From the IMG/VR virus record IMGVR_UViG_2737471841_000009, positions 1 to 14,893 of that record: 14,893 nt of DNA; one strand, given 5' to 3'. Of the stretch, positions 3,102 through 13,525 are shown piece after piece. A model generated the notes under the pieces. The model had not been told where the DNA came from, did not search any database, and was given only the letters and a program-made list of their open reading frames with translations. Each line of letters starts with the position of its first letter. The stretch's first letter is position 1. Source of the stretch: a virus (taxonomy: Duplodnaviria; Heunggongvirae; Uroviricota; Caudoviricetes). A program made the translations under genes and the position numbers.

Positions 3102-4252
3102 TGCACTGGCACCTTCAGAGGGATCACCGGCACAAAGCCGGGATGCGTAATGGCATTACGCCGGATAATGTCCGCGTCACGCGCCGCGTTATCAAACCAG
3201 GTCGCCGCCAGCACCAGCGCGGGTAAAACCTCATCCGGTGTGCGCTGAATGATCCGTGCAGACTGTTCAAGGCGCGTGTTGATATCCGCATTCAGATCTG
3301 CTTTCACCCGGCGCAGCGCCAGAAACAGCGCATCGCTGGTTGTACGGGACAACTCCTTATCAATTGCCGTATTCAGTGTGTCGCGAATGTCAGTCAGTTC
3401 TTCCCACGTCGGCAGGTCAACCGTGTTTTTCACCGCCGGTGCATTGTTCAGTGCCGGATGCGTGACGGAAGGCCAGCCAGTGCTCTGCGCGGGTGTTGTT
3501 GCCTGCCCCACTGCGGAATTCTGCATCACCGCGGAAGTTGTTGGCGCAGGCAATCGGGTGACGGCATACGCCGCTTCGCTGATTGCGGTTGTACGAAGGG
3601 TGCTGGCAACCACGTTACGCTGCTGCGTCGCCGTGGCGGTGGTTTTACTGTCCGTTTTCCAGACGCCGCGCGGTTGCAGATCGCTGCCGAGGCTGACACC
3701 GGAAAGCGTTTTGATCATGGTGACCAGGTCGCTGGCGTTACCATAAAGGCGTTTCCCGGTACGCCACATTTTCTGCACCTGCTCAACGAAATTTTTGCCT
3801 GACGATGGCGGCGGCAGAAGTACCGAGATATCCCCCTGCAACAGCCTGGCGGCATCCGATACGGCAGAATCCACCACTTTCATCGCATCAGAAACATACC
3901 CCAGCATTATGCTGGCATTACCGATAACGTCGTTCTGCACGAAATCCGCCACACCATCGATACTGAAACCGCTGAAGCTGTCACTGATGCAGTCATCCAG
4001 TGCAGAACAGGATGACATCAGCGTCTGCGCCGTCGCCGCACCTGATGTGGGGTAAGAGAGTTCTCCTGCTTCGACAAACTTCAGGTCAAAGCGGACAATA
4101 CGCCCTTCACTTTTCGATGTGCTGACCCGAACTTCCCCGTCAACACAGACTTTCAGCTCACCGTATGTCGGATGGACAAGCGTGCCGGGACCGGGTTTAT
4201 TCAGCGCGTCAATCAGGCGATCGCGCTGGTCAAAGCAGTCATCTCCCACCAC
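3098..4252 (-). CDS. Mu gp43-like 'DNA circulation' / baseplate hub family protein; 5' end apparently disrupted
   Basis: 384-aa ORF whose first codon at 4252 is GTG. The segment VVGDDCFDQRDRLIDALNKPGPGTLVHPTYGEL resembles the conserved core of the DNA-circulation N-terminal domain. The same frame stays open upstream to about 4340 with no SD or ATG, while a separate SD-preceded ATG ORF (4397-4239) lies in the +1 frame. Confidence 0.5.
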   Translation of the reverse strand: MVGDDCFDQRDRLIDALNKPGPGTLVHPTYGELKVCVDGEVRVSTSKSEGRIVRFDLKFVEAGELSYPTSGAATAQTLMSSCSALDDCISDSFSGFSIDGVADFVQNDVIGNASIMLGYVSDAMKVVDSAVSDAARLLQGDISVLLPPPSSGKNFVEQVQKMWRTGKRLYGNASDLVTMIKTLSGVSLGSDLQPRGVWKTDSKTTATATQQRNVVASTLRTTAISEAAYAVTRLPAPTTSAVMQNSAVGQATTPAQSTGWPSVTHPALNNAPAVKNTVDLPTWEELTDIRDTLNTAIDKELSRTTSDALFLALRRVKADLNADINTRLEQSARIIQRTPDEVLPALVLAATWFDNAARDADIIRRNAITHPGFVPVIPLKVPVQ

Positions 4253-5581: not shown

Positions 5582-6247
5582 TTATCTCGTCACTTTTCTT
5601 AATTGCGCCTCAGCATATGCTTCTTCCTGCCAGCACTTTGTAACCAGTTTATCAATGACATCTGCATATCCTTTGTACCACTGATAATCTGTCAGGTCTG
5701 GTACCAGCTTCTGGACATGATGCCGCGCCAGTGTGGTTGGTAAACGGCTAAACCGGTTTCCATTGCAACGCCCACAAATCTTATAAACAGGCGTGCCATG
5801 AAGCCGGGTCCTTTTTTCATCCAGGACAATACCTTTACCCTTACACCCTCTGCACGCTGTGCTGACTTCTCCCTTACCATGACAATGCTGACATAGTTCC
5901 TTCAGCAGGCGCTGGTTTATATCGGCGTTCTCTACTTCCTCAATTTCAGGAAGCGATACGAACACCCCACCAGCAGACTGTGCGACAGCATCCGCAATGT
6001 AGTGAGTGCCAGCTGCGCGCTGTAAAACCATTGCCCATCCCAGCGGGAAAATCTGATCGCCATCGGCACGAAGGCGGTTAAATAATGCGCTCTCTGTTAC
6101 ATCCAGCCAGTCAGCAGCTTCAGCGTAACCCCCCGGCAACGCTGCGATAGTTTTTCTGACAGCTTTCACGTACCACTTAGGCTGTTTTTCTACTTTCCAG
6201 TGATGCTTACCCACGGCTATCTCCTTAAAACTGTGGTTACTTTTCAT
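5582..6247 (-). CDS. CII-position regulator (YdaT-like?) with a C-terminal Cys-rich zinc-ribbon
   Basis: ATG at 6247 overlaps the 3' end of the cro-like gene by 11 nt (the ORF track extends to a TTG at 6319). The gene occupies the cII/ydaT slot after cro. C-terminal motifs CQHCHGKGE, CRGCKGKG and CGRCNGNR are DnaJ-like CxxCxGxG repeats. Confidence 0.45.
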   Translation of the reverse strand: MKSNHSFKEIAVGKHHWKVEKQPKWYVKAVRKTIAALPGGYAEAADWLDVTESALFNRLRADGDQIFPLGWAMVLQRAAGTHYIADAVAQSAGGVFVSLPEIEEVENADINQRLLKELCQHCHGKGEVSTACRGCKGKGIVLDEKRTRLHGTPVYKICGRCNGNRFSRLPTTLARHHVQKLVPDLTDYQWYKGYADVIDKLVTKCWQEEAYAEAQLRKVTR

Positions 6248-6485
6248 CTGATGAATCTTTAATCTTTTGAAAAATATCTGGACGTAATTTTTCTTTTGAT
6301 ATGCCAGTGGTCTTTTCAATGAATATCGAGAGCTTTGCAGGGGGACGCTTTTCTCTGTTCAACCAGTTCCAGACATGTTGTTGCTTTACTAAATGACCGC
6401 TGCTGGCTGTGAGCTTCCGAGCCAATTCTGATTGACCACCAGCCAGAGCGATTGCCTCCGATAAGGCTAATTGCTCAGGTGTCAT
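6237..6485 (-). CDS. Cro-like repressor (YdaS / Cro-CI HTH family)
   Basis: 82-aa ORF with ATG at 6485 preceded by AAGGAG. It is transcribed divergently from the CI-like gene across an operator-rich intergenic region. The sequence (QSELARKL...LRPD) resembles the YdaS-type Cro family. Confidence 0.65.
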   Translation of the reverse strand: MTPEQLALSEAIALAGGQSELARKLTASSGHLVKQQHVWNWLNREKRPPAKLSIFIEKTTGISKEKLRPDIFQKIKDSSDEK

Positions 6486-6620
6486 AGCTTTCTCCTTTTT
6501 AGGTAGTTAAGTTGTTACGAGTTGCAAGAATACAACATTAACAACTTTTATCACAACTTTTAGGTGTTGGAAAGCTAAAACATAAAGTTGTAACCTCATC
6601 AAAAAAGAGAGGGATATGTT
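6486..6620. promoter_or_regulatory. OR-like divergent promoter and operator region between cro and cI
   Basis: 135-bp AT-rich intergenic region with repeated half-site-like motifs: AAGTTGT at 6509 and 6585; ACAACTT at 6541 and 6553; AGGTGTT at 6562. The 11-mer CATAAAGTTGT (6581-6591) recurs at OL (8234-8244). Confidence 0.65.
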
Positions 6621-7307
6621 GTGAAAACACTGGCAGAACGATTAAAGATAGGTAGAGAGAAAGCTGGCATGAGCCAAGCTCAACTAGCTGAAAAAATTGG
6701 ACTTTCACAACAATCTGTAGCCAAAATAGAGAATGGCGAAACTCTACAACCGCGCAAAATTAAAGAAATTGCAAAAGTTTTAGGTGTATCACAAAAGTGG
6801 TTACAACTTGGTATTGAAGACAACGCATCCATACCTGATCTTGTTGTAAAAGAAGCAGAAAGCACCGCATTAGACCCCGATATTTTCGTAAACATTCCTG
6901 TTTTAGATGTCGAGTTATCGGCAGGTAACGGATGTCTGGCTGAAATAGTTGAATCAGCTATTGACTGGTTTCCGTTAAGAAGAGCAGATTTGAGAAAATC
7001 TGGCGTATGTGCATCTAATGCCAAGATCGTAAAAATATGGGGGAACAGTTTATTACCGGTTCTCAATAATGGAGATCTTGTTGCCGTTGATATTTCTCAA
7101 ACCGTTCCTATTCGTGATGGCGATCTTTATGCCGTACGAGATGGTGTATTGCTAAGGGTTAAAATACTTATCAACTTACCTGACGGTGGCTTGATTCTTA
7201 GAAGCTTCAACAAAGATGAGTACCCAGATGAAATACTCACCTTTGAAGATAGACGAGCCAGAATTCATGTTATAGGTAGGGTATTCTGGTCATCGCGAAC
7301 TTGGTAA
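6621..7307 (+). CDS. CI-like prophage repressor (XRE-type HTH plus S24 LexA-like autopeptidase domain)
   Basis: GTG start at 6621 preceded by GAGAGGG. N-terminal HTH (MSQAQLAEKIGLSQQSVAKIENGE). An Ala-Gly candidate cleavage site (LSAGNG) and a Ser/Lys dyad (WGNSLLP and LLRVK) are present. Confidence 0.85.
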   Translation: MKTLAERLKIGREKAGMSQAQLAEKIGLSQQSVAKIENGETLQPRKIKEIAKVLGVSQKWLQLGIEDNASIPDLVVKEAESTALDPDIFVNIPVLDVELSAGNGCLAEIVESAIDWFPLRRADLRKSGVCASNAKIVKIWGNSLLPVLNNGDLVAVDISQTVPIRDGDLYAVRDGVLLRVKILINLPDGGLILRSFNKDEYPDEILTFEDRRARIHVIGRVFWSSRTW

Positions 7308-8180
7308 TGCATCGAAAAGCATTTCTTCAGAAATAATTTTAAGTTTTGCACCATTATCATCCCTATAAGATATAGCCTTTTCGATCTTCCTTCCGTGACT
7401 TGAGAATTTCCAATCACGGGAGGAAAGCGTCCCAATTACTAAAAAATCCAACTTTTGAGTAATTCCACTACTGATGTTCCCACCAGCATTTTTAATCAAA
7501 TTTTCAACTACGGCTCTCTTTCCTGCAACAAAAGTGCCTGTAAGACAATAGGTTTTACCCTCTAACTCTATCGAAGCCCCTACATCAATAGGCAGCCTGG
7601 TCGCCAAACCATCCACCACCCCACTTTCCAAGTCACATCCTGTGAAGTCTACTAATGCCTTATGTAGAGTTAAACTCTCATCTTCAGTAATAACACCATC
7701 TTTAAGAATTTCCTTTACAAGTGCATAAAGTTTTTTTCCTGGGTAGTTGTTCTTCAAAGCTCCATTTTGCTCAAGCCACCAATTAAGATATCTTATTTCT
7801 TCTTGAGTTAAGTTCCGATCAGCAATTAATCCTTTACATAGTCCATTAAGTAAATGGACATCTACATCCTTGGAGTAAAAATCAATTTCAGGGATATCAA
7901 GAATTTCCCTCTGTATTTGGAGAAGGCTATTTTTAAGGTCATCACGTTCTTCTGATGTGATTATTCCATCCGCAAGAATATCCGACACCCGTGCTGATAG
8001 ACTTTTTATAACTCCATTATTGATAATCTGCTTTGCTTCAAGTAACCATGTATCTAAGTAAAGAACCTCCTCTTCACGGACAACTCCATCTGCAATGATT
8101 CCATCAATGATGCTAATCAAGTTAGCAAATAACTTGTCCCGGTTCTGTGTGTAATTAAAAGCGTAAAGCGCGTCTTCCAT
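7290..8180 (-). CDS. Moron protein: four tandem ~40-aa repeats plus a C-terminal BRCT domain; candidate exclusion or defence effector
   Basis: ATG at 8180 preceded by AGGAGG (the ORF track extends to a GTG at 8210). Repeats centre on IIADGVVREEEVLYL, ILADGIITSEERDDL, LIADRNLTQEEIRYL and ILKDGVITEDESLTL. The C-terminus (GKTYCLTGTF...LDFLVIGT...KLKIISEEMLFDAL) matches the BRCT fold pattern of LigA-type BRCT domains. Confidence 0.8.
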   Translation of the reverse strand: MEDALYAFNYTQNRDKLFANLISIIDGIIADGVVREEEVLYLDTWLLEAKQIINNGVIKSLSARVSDILADGIITSEERDDLKNSLLQIQREILDIPEIDFYSKDVDVHLLNGLCKGLIADRNLTQEEIRYLNWWLEQNGALKNNYPGKKLYALVKEILKDGVITEDESLTLHKALVDFTGCDLESGVVDGLATRLPIDVGASIELEGKTYCLTGTFVAGKRAVVENLIKNAGGNISSGITQKLDFLVIGTLSSRDWKFSSHGRKIEKAISYRDDNGAKLKIISEEMLFDALPSSR

Positions 8181-8230
8181 ACAACCTCCTTTTTTTGATA
8201 ATCCTTGCACTCCTTGGCTACTCGTTCAAA

Positions 8231-8290
8231 CCACATAAAGTTGTTGACAACATTCAAAACCACAACTAAATTACAACTTAAAGGTGTTAA
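8231..8290 (+). promoter_or_regulatory. OL/PL-like operator and promoter region for the early-left operon
   Basis: -35 TTGACA (8244-8249), 17-bp spacer, -10 TAAATT (8267-8272). Operator-like motifs are shared with OR: CATAAAGTTGT (8234-8244), ACAACT (8262-8267), ACAACTT (8273-8279), AGGTGTT (8282-8288). Confidence 0.55.
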
Positions 8291-8382
8291 AACAACGAAC
8301 AGGCAGGACGCCCACGAAGTAGCCGCCGGTGGCGTATGAATGACCGGATGATTCGTTAAATACTATGTGTAAGAGAGCGCAA

Positions 8383-8586
8383 ATGAACCGTTATTTCACA
8401 TGCTCGTTTTGTGGCGCAAACGAGCTGCAGGCAAAAAAAATCATCGCCAAAGGCGGAAAAGATGAAGTTGCTATCTGCTCTGAGTGCGTAGTCTTGTGTG
8501 TCGGGGCATTAATCAATATCAGCACAACTATTCAGTTCACACCAAATGAGAATGCGCCTTTAGATGCGCGGAAATCTGGAGGTTAA
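8383..8586 (+). CDS. Small ClpX-type C4 zinc-finger protein; first gene of the early-left operon
   Basis: ATG at 8383 preceded by AAGAGAG (the ORF track starts at an upstream ATG at 8365). The motifs CSFCG and ICSECVVLC match the ClpX N-terminal zinc-binding domain pattern (CSFCGK...ICDECV). Confidence 0.6.
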   Translation: MNRYFTCSFCGANELQAKKIIAKGGKDEVAICSECVVLCVGALINISTTIQFTPNENAPLDARKSGG

Positions 8587-9033: not shown

Positions 9034-9129
9034 TTGATTTTCCTTTTATGTATACGGGCTTAAAAGGATACCACCGAGCCTGAAGTGGTGAAAAGACAGG
9101 CACATAACAGCTAAGTATTTTCAACCAAA

Positions 9130-9450
9130 GAGAATCCTTAGCGTTGTGGTGAATGCGGCTCAGCGCACGCGGGTTAAGGTTGAGGCTGACAGTCGACCTT
9201 CTGTGGATACCCACCCGTCTGGTGTGCAACCTTCGCCAGGCACCGGGAGGCACCCGGCACCACAACTTTATGCTGTGTGTAGTCCTGGCGGTACCAGTTT
9301 GTACCCTTGCTTCCGGCTGGTACCGTCCTTTTTACAAAACAGAGAAGAGCATCACCGGACGACGGGCTCATAACCCAATCCATCCGGGCGGCTGCTACCG
9401 CAGGTGTTCTTCTCTGTTTTGTGGAGAAACTAATCGGCCTTGCAGGGTCG
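9130..9450 (+). other. GC-rich, ORF-poor structured segment; candidate structured RNA or cis-regulatory element
   Basis: All frames carry Arg/Pro-rich ORFs with no SD. Perfect 15-bp inverted repeat 9334-9348 / 9408-9422 (ACAAAACAGAGAAGA). An 11-bp stem 9287-9297 / 9317-9327 is followed by CTTTTT. A small hairpin CCGGG-AGGCA-CCCGG lies at 9243-9257. Confidence 0.4.
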
Positions 9451-12045: not shown

Positions 12046-12395
12046 TGGAGCCATACAGCCTCACACTCGATGAGGCCTGTCATTTTCTCAAGATATCCAG
12101 ACCGACTGCCATTAACTGGATACGCACAGGGCGTCTTCAGGCAACACGCAAAGATCCCACTAAGAATAAATCTCCTTACCTCACAACACGACAAGCCTGC
12201 ATTGCGGCTCTTCAGTCTCCGCTGCATACTGTCCAGGTGAGCGCGGGTGATGGCATAACAGAGGAAAGAAAATGTCACTCTTCCGCAGAAGTGAAATATG
12301 GTACGCCAGTTTCACATTGCCGAACGGTAAAAGATTTAAACAGTCTCTTGGAACAAAGGACAAAAGGCAGGCGACAGAGCTCCATGACAAGCTAA
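12045..12395 (+). CDS. xis: Excisionase (P22 Xis-like, 116 aa)
   Basis: ATG at 12045 preceded by AAGAGGTGA. N-terminal HTH ([26 protein letters not shown]). 116 aa matches the P22 Xis length. Sits immediately upstream of int and overlaps it by 124 nt. Confidence 0.7.
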
Positions 12396-13435
12396 AGGCT
12401 GAAGCATGGCGGGTCAGCAAACTTGGTGAAATACCTGATATGACGTTTGAGGAAGCGTGTGTCAGGTGGCTCGAAGAGAAAGCACATAAGAAATCACTGG
12501 ACGATGACAAAAGCCGGATCGGATTCTGGCTTCAACATTTCGCAGGGATGCAACTAAGAGACATCACTGAATCAAAAATTTATTCAGCGATGCAGAAAAT
12601 GACAAACCGGCGTCATGAGGAAAACTGGAAACTCAGGGCAGAAGCATGCAGAAAAAAAGGGAAACCTGTTCCAGAATACACGCCAAAACCAGCGTCCGTT
12701 GCAACGAAGGCTACGCATCTTTCATTTATAAAGGCCCTGCTAAGAGCCGCAGAGCGTGAATGGAAAATGCTGGATAAGGCACCAATTCTTAAAGTGCCTC
12801 AACCGAAGAATAAACGTATCCGCTGGCTGGAGCCTCATGAAGCACAAAGGCTGATTGATGAATGTCCGGAGCCATTAAAGTCTGTTGTTGAATTTGCACT
12901 GGCAACAGGCTTAAGACGCTCGAACATCATCAACCTTGAATGGCAACAAATAGACATGCAGCGCCGGGTGGCATGGATAAACCCGGAAGAGAGTAAATCA
13001 AACCGCGCAATTGGCGTTGCGCTGAATGATACTGCATGTCGCGTATTGAAAAAACAAATCGGGAATCATCACCGTTGGGTATTTGTATACAAGGAAAGCT
13101 GTACCAAACCAGACGGAACGAAAGCGCCAACGGTCAGGAAGATGCGGTATGACGCAAACACAGCCTGGAAAGCGGCGCTGAGACGAGCAGGTATTGATGA
13201 TTTCAGATTTCACGACTTGAGACACACCTGGGCAAGTTGGCTGGTTCAAGCCGGAGTCCCGTTGTCAGTGTTACAGGAAATGGGAGGCTGGGAGTCTATC
13301 GAAATGGTTCGTCGATATGCTCACCTCGCACCTAATCACCTTACCGAACATGCACGGCAAATAGACTCGATCCTGAACCCATCGGTCCCAAATTTGTCCC
13401 AGTCAAAAAATAAGGAAGGTACTAATGATGTGTAA
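12272..13435 (+). CDS. int: Tyrosine-recombinase integrase (P22 Int-like, 387 aa)
   Basis: C-terminal catalytic region [15 protein letters not shown]...VRRYAHL (R/H-x-x-R/Y signature). The gene ends 14 nt from the 3' end of thrW, the known P22 attachment tRNA. Length equals P22 Int. Confidence 0.85.
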
Positions 13436-13470
13436 CTTATTGATTTAAATGGTGCCGATAATAGGAGTCG
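13436..13470. other. Prophage–host junction (att core region) at the 3' end of thrW
   Basis: The interval between the int stop and the 3' part of the tRNA; tRNA-integrating phages carry the core homology over the tRNA 3' end. Exact core limits cannot be set without the other prophage end. Confidence 0.4.
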
Positions 13471-13525
13471 AACCTACGACCTTCGCATTACGAATGCGCT
13501 GCTCTACCAACTGAGCTATATCGGC
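13450..13525 (-). tRNA. thrW: tRNA-Thr (anticodon CGU), 76 nt with encoded CCA
   Basis: Reverse complement reads GCCGATATAGCTCAGTTGGTAGAGCAGCGCATTCGTAATGCGAAGGTCGTAGGTTCGACTCCTATTATCGGCACCA. Acceptor stem GCCGATA/TATCGGC, anticodon loop TTCGTAA, T-loop GGTTCGACTCC. Adjacent to proA as in E. coli. Confidence 0.93.

Follow-up and report, generated by a model that had tools for sequence, protein, structure and literature searches.

The locus considered here, where a cI-type repressor gene and a gene for a BRCT-domain protein converge tail to tail and share their last 18 bp, raises the question of whether such an arrangement serves as a regulatory device or is the by-product of tight gene packing. 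The initial annotation saw in it scope for transcriptional interference between the lysogeny repressor and an accessory gene. The window, i.e., the whole 14,893-nucleotide stretch of DNA that was analysed, comes from an E. coli chromosome in which a lambdoid prophage lies beside tRNA-Thr(CGT) and proA; the integration site of the prophage is thrW. The explanation preferred in the present study, to which a probability of about 0.6 is assigned as a whole, is that of a compact, portable immunity cassette in which the gene overlap is ordinary, the BRCT gene would be expressed from a cI-coupled promoter, and the convergent transcripts would be terminated by Rho and by polymerase collision. The features on which the argument is built are collected in Table 1.

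Table 1 Features of the prophage control region and its surroundings (positions are those of the window; promoters and operator-like sites are predicted)
Feature	Position	Strand	Description
cro-like gene	6237..6485	-	YdaS-family HTH, 82 aa; divergent from cI; Pfam YdaS_toxin, E 7.8e-15
OR region			135 bp between the cro-like gene and cI
Predicted PR	6527..6556	-	-35 TTGTGA (6556..6551), 18 nt spacer, -10 TATTCT (6532..6527); best - strand OR site in weight-matrix scan
Operator-like 15-mer ACAACTTTTAGGTGT	6553..6567		In OR; overlaps PR -35 and abuts PRM -35; near-invariant across 7 cassettes
Predicted PRM for cI	6568..6596	+	TGGAAA, 17 nt spacer, TAACCT; best + strand OR site in weight-matrix scan
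Second OR operator-like site	6577-6591		Over PRM spacer and -10
cI-type repressor gene	6621..7307	+	228 aa, GTG start; HTH_3 E 1.4e-15; full-length Peptidase_S24 E 6e-15
Hairpin H1	7211..7245	-	Inside 3' end of cI, 45-80 nt downstream of BRCT stop; 15 pairs, no U-tract
Tail-to-tail overlap	7290..7307		18 bp; cI ends in SSRTW and stop, BRCT protein in LPSSR and stop
BRCT-domain accessory gene	7290..8180	-	296 aa, ATG at 8180
Hairpin H2	7387..7426		Inside BRCT coding region, codons for SSRDWKFSSHGRK; 80-120 nt downstream of cI stop; no U-tract
OL region	8181-8364		184 bp
Predicted BRCT promoter	8201..8229	-	-35 TTGAAC (8229..8224), 17 nt, extended -10 TGc AAGGAT (8206..8201); best - strand OL site
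Operator-like 15-mer ACAACTTTATGTGGT	8230..8244	-	Overlaps PL -35 by 1 nt; abuts BRCT promoter -35, centre at about -43
Predicted PL	8244..8272	+	TTGACA, 17 nt spacer, TAAATT; 10/12 consensus matches; top weight-matrix score of the region; invariant in homologues
Operator-like pseudo-palindromic 15-mer ACAACTTAAAGGTGT	8273..8287		Over PL start site; motif on both strands; conserved
Early-left (PL) operon	First gene 8383-8586	+	First gene ClpX-zinc-finger-like
Integrase gene	12272-13435	+	At the tRNA end of the prophage
tRNA-Thr(CGT)	13450-13525	-	

In lambda, cI and the PL operon run in one direction and cro in the opposite one. The control region of the present prophage has the same layout: a repressor with an HTH_3 domain and a full-length Peptidase_S24 domain is adjoined by the divergent cro-like gene of the YdaS family (labelled in RefSeq as a transcriptional regulator), and the sole difference from lambda is the inverted gene in the "rexAB slot". 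This layout is partly shown and partly predicted. The lysogeny-side genes, cI and the BRCT gene, face each other between OR and OL, and the lytic promoters PR and PL would fire outward from both ends of the cassette. The small ClpX C4 zinc-finger-like protein encoded by the first gene of the PL operon (Pfam zf-C4_ClpX, E 1.4e-10) occupies the slot held by N in lambda, and no N-like antiterminator was evident at this position.

The portable cassette consists of the BRCT gene, cI, the cro-like gene and a ymfL-like gene. Since the flanking prophage genes differ among homologous loci, the cassette itself appears to be the conserved unit. From cro to OL (6486-8364) the DNA is AT-rich, with a G+C content of 0.32-0.42 against 0.53 in the prophage left arm and 0.54 in proA, and the low G+C of the whole cassette fits a separately acquired mosaic module. 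A search of the whole window against Rfam gave no match at the gene junction or in OL and returned only the tRNA, a sub-threshold STnc100 match and chance matches. The STnc100 sRNA match (9121-9336, + strand) extends over the full model length with 39.5 bits against a gathering score of 47 (E 1e-5), and it contains an operator-like 15-mer with two mismatches at 9262-9276.

Both partners of the convergent pair are well-defined genes. The BRCT gene product matches Pfam BRCT (PF00533) above the gathering score (29 bits against a cut-off of 21.3) and phrog_3989 over its full length (E 1.5e-128). The shared sequence, TCATCGCGAACTTGGTAA, contains the TAA stop of cI (7305-7307) and, as TCA at 7290-7292, the complement of the TGA stop of the BRCT gene, and the codon boundaries within it are common to both reading frames. 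The same two overlapping CDS are annotated in RefSeq, and both genes are called by the NCBI annotation pipeline in 47 E. coli genomes. The pair thus consists of opposite-strand open reading frames, each with family matches and a conserved C-terminus. The C-termini are kept at the protein level (WSSR(S/T)W at the end of the repressor and LP at the end of the BRCT protein), and their conservation implies that the minimal overlap of 9 bp is no annotation artefact. The geometry described in the initial annotation, two genes converging with an 18-bp overlap so that read-through from either would be antisense to the other, is consequently confirmed by the reading frames, the stop codons and the RefSeq CDS. 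At the same time, the overlap per se is statistically not unusual: tail-to-tail overlaps are common in E. coli, and 75 convergent overlapping pairs have been counted among 4,131 adjacent pairs in the K-12 strain (PMC4161906). What does exceed chance is that the convergent pairing has been kept across eight diverged lineages.

Comparison of the junctions in these lineages shows the 9-mer TCATGGTAA, in which cI ends in SW and the BRCT protein in LP, as the ancestral state, and the 18 bp as a derived one. The 9-mer is found in five of the eight lineages; the rest carry ACT, AGT or TCT variants, which result in overlaps of 15-18 bp. Depending on the lineage, stop-codon substitutions have led to overlaps of 9, 12, 15 or 18 bp. 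In the window, the ancestral TCA at 7299-7301 has become ACT, which replaces Ser by Thr in the repressor and the stop by Ser in the BRCT protein; because the BRCT stop (TCA on the + strand) has been lost in this way, its reading frame continues for three more codons, up to another TCA, giving 18 bp. Among 120 cluster representatives, the BRCT protein ends in LP in 79 cases, and is extended by two residues in 23, by three residues in seven and by one residue in a single case; an 18-bp overlap is implied for 7 of 110 representatives. The overlap thus presents itself as a by-product of tight packing and stop-codon drift, apparently without a conserved sequence element or a dedicated function. A role of the overlap itself as a regulatory device was not borne out, as its length drifts between 9 and 18 bp and conserved or covarying RNA structure is absent at the junction.

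Cassettes homologous to that of the window were collected from E. coli TST3, Citrobacter, Serratia, Rosenbergiella (L013), Enterobacter, Klebsiella and Plesiomonas, and from an assembly labelled Pseudomonas lundensis (L007). The convergent pairing with an HTH_3 + S24 repressor is kept in eight lineages with 68-100% protein identity. In the eight collected cassettes, the BRCT proteins are 68-82% identical to that of the window, and the gene converges on a repressor gene for 228-250 aa with an overlap of 9 or 15 bp. The L007 cassette (JAWQUI010000002.1) encodes a BRCT protein of 77% identity and has the same operators and typical enterobacterial neighbours, which suggests a contaminated or misassigned assembly, or else a recent transfer. 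A megablast search of the phage collection with positions 6200-8400 found no close relative of the cassette and matched only the 70-nt PL leader element described below.

The BRCT gene is present at an identity of at least 98.7% in 47 of 5,426 complete E. coli genomes, and the cI gene of the window, at an identity of at least 95%, in an equal number (47); the two genes are adjacent in every record present among the matches to both. About 24 further E. coli genomes contain a cI variant with 84% identity. The two of these that were examined, L004 and L006, have lost the same 714 bp from within the BRCT gene, equivalent to positions 7434-8147 of the window (breakpoints at 3425/3427 in L004 and 3424/3427 in L006). 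The remnant keeps 144 bp beside cI, including hairpin H2, together with the first 33 bp of the gene and the promoter region, and it is decaying through further small deletions. It follows that the cassette originally contained the BRCT gene and that a prophage can be maintained without it.

The operator motif ACAACTTTAAGGTGT (15-mer, up to three mismatches) has seven matches in the window against 0.46 expected. The sites cluster at 6553 and 6577 in OR and at 8230 and 8273 in OL; these repeated sites flank the repressor region, overlap the predicted PR and PL, and are taken as predicted cI operators. One further operator-like 15-mer, AAAAGTTTTAGGTGT, with three mismatches, lies inside the cI coding region (6773-6787, + strand) and could be a chance match or an extra repressor site. 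The predicted promoters are conserved as well: in homologous cassettes the -10 element of PR is TATAAT, and in seven cassettes the TGGAAA of PRM is invariant, with T1, A2 and T6 of its -10 element kept in all seven. PL is bracketed by the two OL operator-like sites.

The initial annotation overlooked that the BRCT gene has its own predicted operator-adjacent promoter at OL, with an expected transcription start near 8194. Across eight lineages this site keeps TTGA at the -35 position, the exact 17-nt spacing and A(A/G)GG(A/C)T at the -10 position, and the TG of the extended -10 element is present in seven, whereas the spacer sequence varies freely; conserved hexamers and spacing with a variable spacer are the pattern predicted for a promoter. 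The -10 hexamer AAGGAT speaks against it, as it is a poor one that agrees with the consensus in three of its six positions. The predicted PRM and BRCT promoter, which are about 1.6 kb apart and both weak-looking, share the same arrangement of operator, -35 element, 17-nt spacer and -10 element, and resemble each other in the A-rich leader and the Shine-Dalgarno region that follow. PRM of lambda is activated by cI bound at OR2, next to the -35 element. The operator-like site at 8230-8244 abuts the -35 element of the BRCT promoter in the same manner, and this leads us to infer a cI-coupled promoter from which lysogens express the BRCT gene. Such an operator could alternatively be neutral or repressive, e.g., through OL-OR looping. 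The description of the BRCT gene as a "moron" in the initial annotation holds in part: a conserved promoter-like site is present, but the terminator is missing, and the G+C content of the gene (0.38 against 0.53 in the flanking prophage left arm) fits acquired DNA, although the whole cassette is AT-rich.

A further element of about 70 nt (8285-8358, + strand), located just downstream of the predicted PL start, is 86-98% identical in 33 phage records. Its carriers include SfV, SfII, SfIV, ST64B, mEp460 and Yersinia YeP1-3, and SfV has it in the same place, after PL and ahead of the first early-left gene. No Rfam family matches the element, and folding of the single sequence gave an ordinary result (z 0.09). 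It could represent a conserved leader, for instance a nut-like or antitermination signal.

In agreement with the initial annotation, a consensus scan detected no canonical intrinsic terminator at or near the junction, the sole match being a weak stem with three G-C pairs (7258..7235, - strand); nor does the gene boundary contain a bidirectional terminator, i.e., a G+C-rich hairpin with an A-tract and a U-tract. Read-through would run on from the BRCT gene into cro on the - strand and from PRM into the PL operon on the + strand, and this leakage, overlooked in the initial annotation, is a stronger selective issue than antisense transcription of the partner. For this reason, termination by Rho and by collision is favoured. 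RNA read through beyond cI is rich in C and poor in G (C/G 1.4-3.0 over 7308-7867), as expected of a Rho substrate, and programmed collisions at convergent gene pairs have been documented in E. coli (bioRxiv 10.1101/2022.10.23.513370). In the deletion variants L004 and L006, cI is only about 200 bp from PL with no canonical terminator between them, so that either H2 terminates transcription or read-through is tolerated there.

According to the preferred reading, the BRCT gene would not be co-transcribed with cI, but read from a separate weak promoter of the extended -10 type, situated on the OL minus strand; the gene would probably be on in lysogens, tied to cI occupancy, and off after induction. 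Past its stop codon, each transcript would continue as untranslated antisense RNA with 0.7-0.9 kb of the partner gene ahead of it, and would probably not extend beyond a few hundred nucleotides, being stopped by Rho, by polymerases meeting head-on and perhaps also through pausing at the hairpins. With such ends inside the partner gene, transcription from PRM would not reach the PL operon, and that of the BRCT gene would not reach cro. A more specific version can be put forward tentatively, with less than even confidence: OL would contain a second PRM-like promoter, activated by cI from 8230-8244, with the BRCT gene on in lysogens and off at induction, and the head-on genes would replace the terminator after cI, making the cassette a mirror-symmetric "double PRM".

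Other explanations of the arrangement were weighed against the same data. Convergent transcription might itself be a regulatory device, as proposed in the initial annotation, with collisions, antisense RNA or dsRNA processing tuning the level of the repressor or of the cargo, and with gene orientation selected for this purpose. The retention of convergence in eight lineages, though the homologue is co-oriented in P2-like phages, speaks for this, as does the missing terminator between the two genes. There are precedents for it: the ith/tha genes of S. aureus phage 80alpha represent a functional antisense architecture in a lysogeny module, in which the cI promoter interferes with an antisense gene of the cI operon and thereby controls it (PMC11087260), and transcriptional interference between convergent promoters is established for coliphage 186 (PMC5001618). 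However, the overlap length is not conserved, no covarying structure was found at the junction, the predicted promoters are weak and 1.6 kb apart, and prophages with a deleted BRCT gene persist in about 24 genomes with an intact cI, which indicates that cI does not depend on this partner. We therefore consider a device of this kind rather unlikely; some regulatory interference between cI and the BRCT gene is possible, the geometry being the one feature compatible with it.

The embedded hairpins would offer another solution if H1 ended the BRCT transcript and H2 the cI transcript, leaving an mRNA overlap of about 100-200 nt and little interference. The strand bias of H1 is suggestive in this respect (-19.0 kcal/mol on the - strand against -9.8 on the + strand, with four G.U pairs that form only in BRCT-sense RNA), the - strand fold of 7120-7330 has a z-score of -3.07, and H2 (-21.4 kcal/mol on the + strand and -19.0 on the - strand) is retained beside cI in L004 and L006. 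Both hairpins lack a downstream U-tract, however, and RNAalifold and pair counts with 6-8 homologues revealed no covariation at the junction and no compensatory changes in H1 or H2, the covariation term being unfavourable. H1 is only partly conserved, and L013 has the convergent overlap but has lost the two hairpins; moreover, both lie in codons for conserved residues, and this strongly conserved protein-coding location alone explains their sequence conservation. Hairpin termination is regarded as distinctly unlikely. Finally, the BRCT gene might be an early gene repressed by cI via OL, so that convergent transcription would occur only on induction or infection and, being antisense to cI, would help to shut it off. 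Its promoter does lie inside OL between two operator-like sites, where cooperatively bound cI or an OL-OR loop could occlude it. But the operator is placed upstream of the -35 element and not over the core, which is the classical activating or neutral position known for lambda OR2 and PRM; the same geometry is predicted for the PRM of this phage, and the K139 homologue belongs to a lysogenic cI operon. This last possibility is regarded as very unlikely.

The K139 homologue just mentioned also bears on the nature of the BRCT gene. In Vibrio phage K139, orf2 encodes a protein with 33% identity over 95% of the BRCT protein, and the gene order is cI, orf2, glo, int, downstream of an annotated lysogenic promoter PL with a mapped start site; the same co-oriented order is found in P2-like prophages of Pantoea and Kosakonia. 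The co-orientation of the homologue inside the cI operon of K139 marks the BRCT gene, by sequence comparison, as repressor-linked cargo. Its product was predicted by AF2 (pLDDT 72) to consist of two helical bundles followed by one C-terminal BRCT domain, and no catalytic domain is recognisable in the protein. PADLOC-DB v2 gave a weak partial match to the candidate family PDC-S48 (E 2.4e-07, aa 119-251 against positions 239-377 of a 411-position profile). Assignment of the N-terminal 200 residues to BrxL_N or SHOCT was rejected, the matches being weak and below threshold. Distant homologues (35-39% identity) stand alone in varied, often mobile contexts, next to an RNase_T exonuclease, a Tse2-like ADP-ribosyltransferase, AAA and SbcC-like ATPases, RhuM and transporters, and no conserved partner gene emerged among these contexts. 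A literature search found no paper tying this BRCT family to a function. As the gene lies beside the repressor gene in two phage types, and in K139 also adjoins the exclusion gene glo, it may be of benefit to the lysogen, and exclusion or defence would be our guess.

The 18-bp overlap alone is thus of little weight, and the wider picture of the cassette is more useful. One accessory gene family stands beside the repressor gene in two unrelated kinds of temperate phages, P2-like and lambdoid. If the proposed arrangement is confirmed, it would show that prophages have a second means of linking the expression of their cargo to lysogeny and would provide a natural test case for how terminator-less convergent genes avoid leaking into lytic genes, and the BRCT protein would be a reasonable candidate for superinfection exclusion or defence.

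Among the known systems that resemble the cassette is the immunity region of lambda. In that phage, cI, rexA and rexB are transcribed from PRM, and transcription ends at a terminator before OL/PL. The two phages share the place of the cargo, which lies between the repressor gene and OL/PL, and the type of repressor, an HTH + S24 protein whose gene is divergent from cro. In both, operators recur at OR and OL, the lytic promoters point outward, and an operator abuts the -35 element of the maintenance promoter. Unlike in lambda, the cargo is inverted here and converges on cI with an overlap of 9-18 bp, seems to be read from a second promoter of the PRM type on the opposite face of OL, and is not separated from cI by a terminator. 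The contrast with the co-oriented rexAB genes drawn in the initial annotation is well founded and extends to Stx1 phage SH2026, NC-SV and K139, where the cargo after cI is co-oriented as well. Being on the opposite strand, the BRCT gene is not cargo of the rexAB type, i.e., co-oriented and co-transcribed from PRM, whereas its K139 homologue is. SfV has no cargo, but a strong intrinsic terminator directly after cI, followed by PL. The sRNA svsR, described "at the 3' end of cI" of NC-SV (PMC12803456), was rejected as non-homologous to this region: NC-SV was located in strain NC101, the identity between its cI and that of the window is only 32%, its cargo is co-oriented, and the alignment of C0293 with the window was at background level (score 40 against 38 +/- 5).

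K139 resembles the present prophage in having the BRCT homologue directly beside the repressor gene, and differs in that orf2 is co-oriented with cI and read from the lysogenic promoter, the repressor is of another type and there is no overlap with cI. In phage 80alpha, the tha/ith "noncontiguous operon" (PMC11087260) likewise has an opposite gene with its own promoter in or beside the cI unit, so that overlapping antisense transcripts are expected; there, however, the antisense gene is nested in the cI operon, encodes an inhibitor of a defence protein, and its interference was shown experimentally, whereas the genes of the present cassette are merely tail-to-tail, are known from sequence and encode unrelated proteins. 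The pR-pL switch of coliphage 186 and P2 also involves convergent transcription within a prophage control region, but its lytic and lysogenic promoters are tens of bp apart and their interference sets the switch, while here both genes are on the lysogeny side and their promoters are about 1.6 kb apart. As in the convergent E. coli gene pairs mentioned above (bioRxiv 10.1101/2022.10.23.513370), the transcripts must end at a common boundary, although those pairs have a defined stem-loop between the genes, and the present pair has neither an intergenic space nor a conserved stem-loop. Relative to known lambdoid immunity regions, the modest novelty of this one lies in a conserved inverted cargo gene with its own predicted operator-linked promoter and with no canonical terminator between it and the repressor gene.
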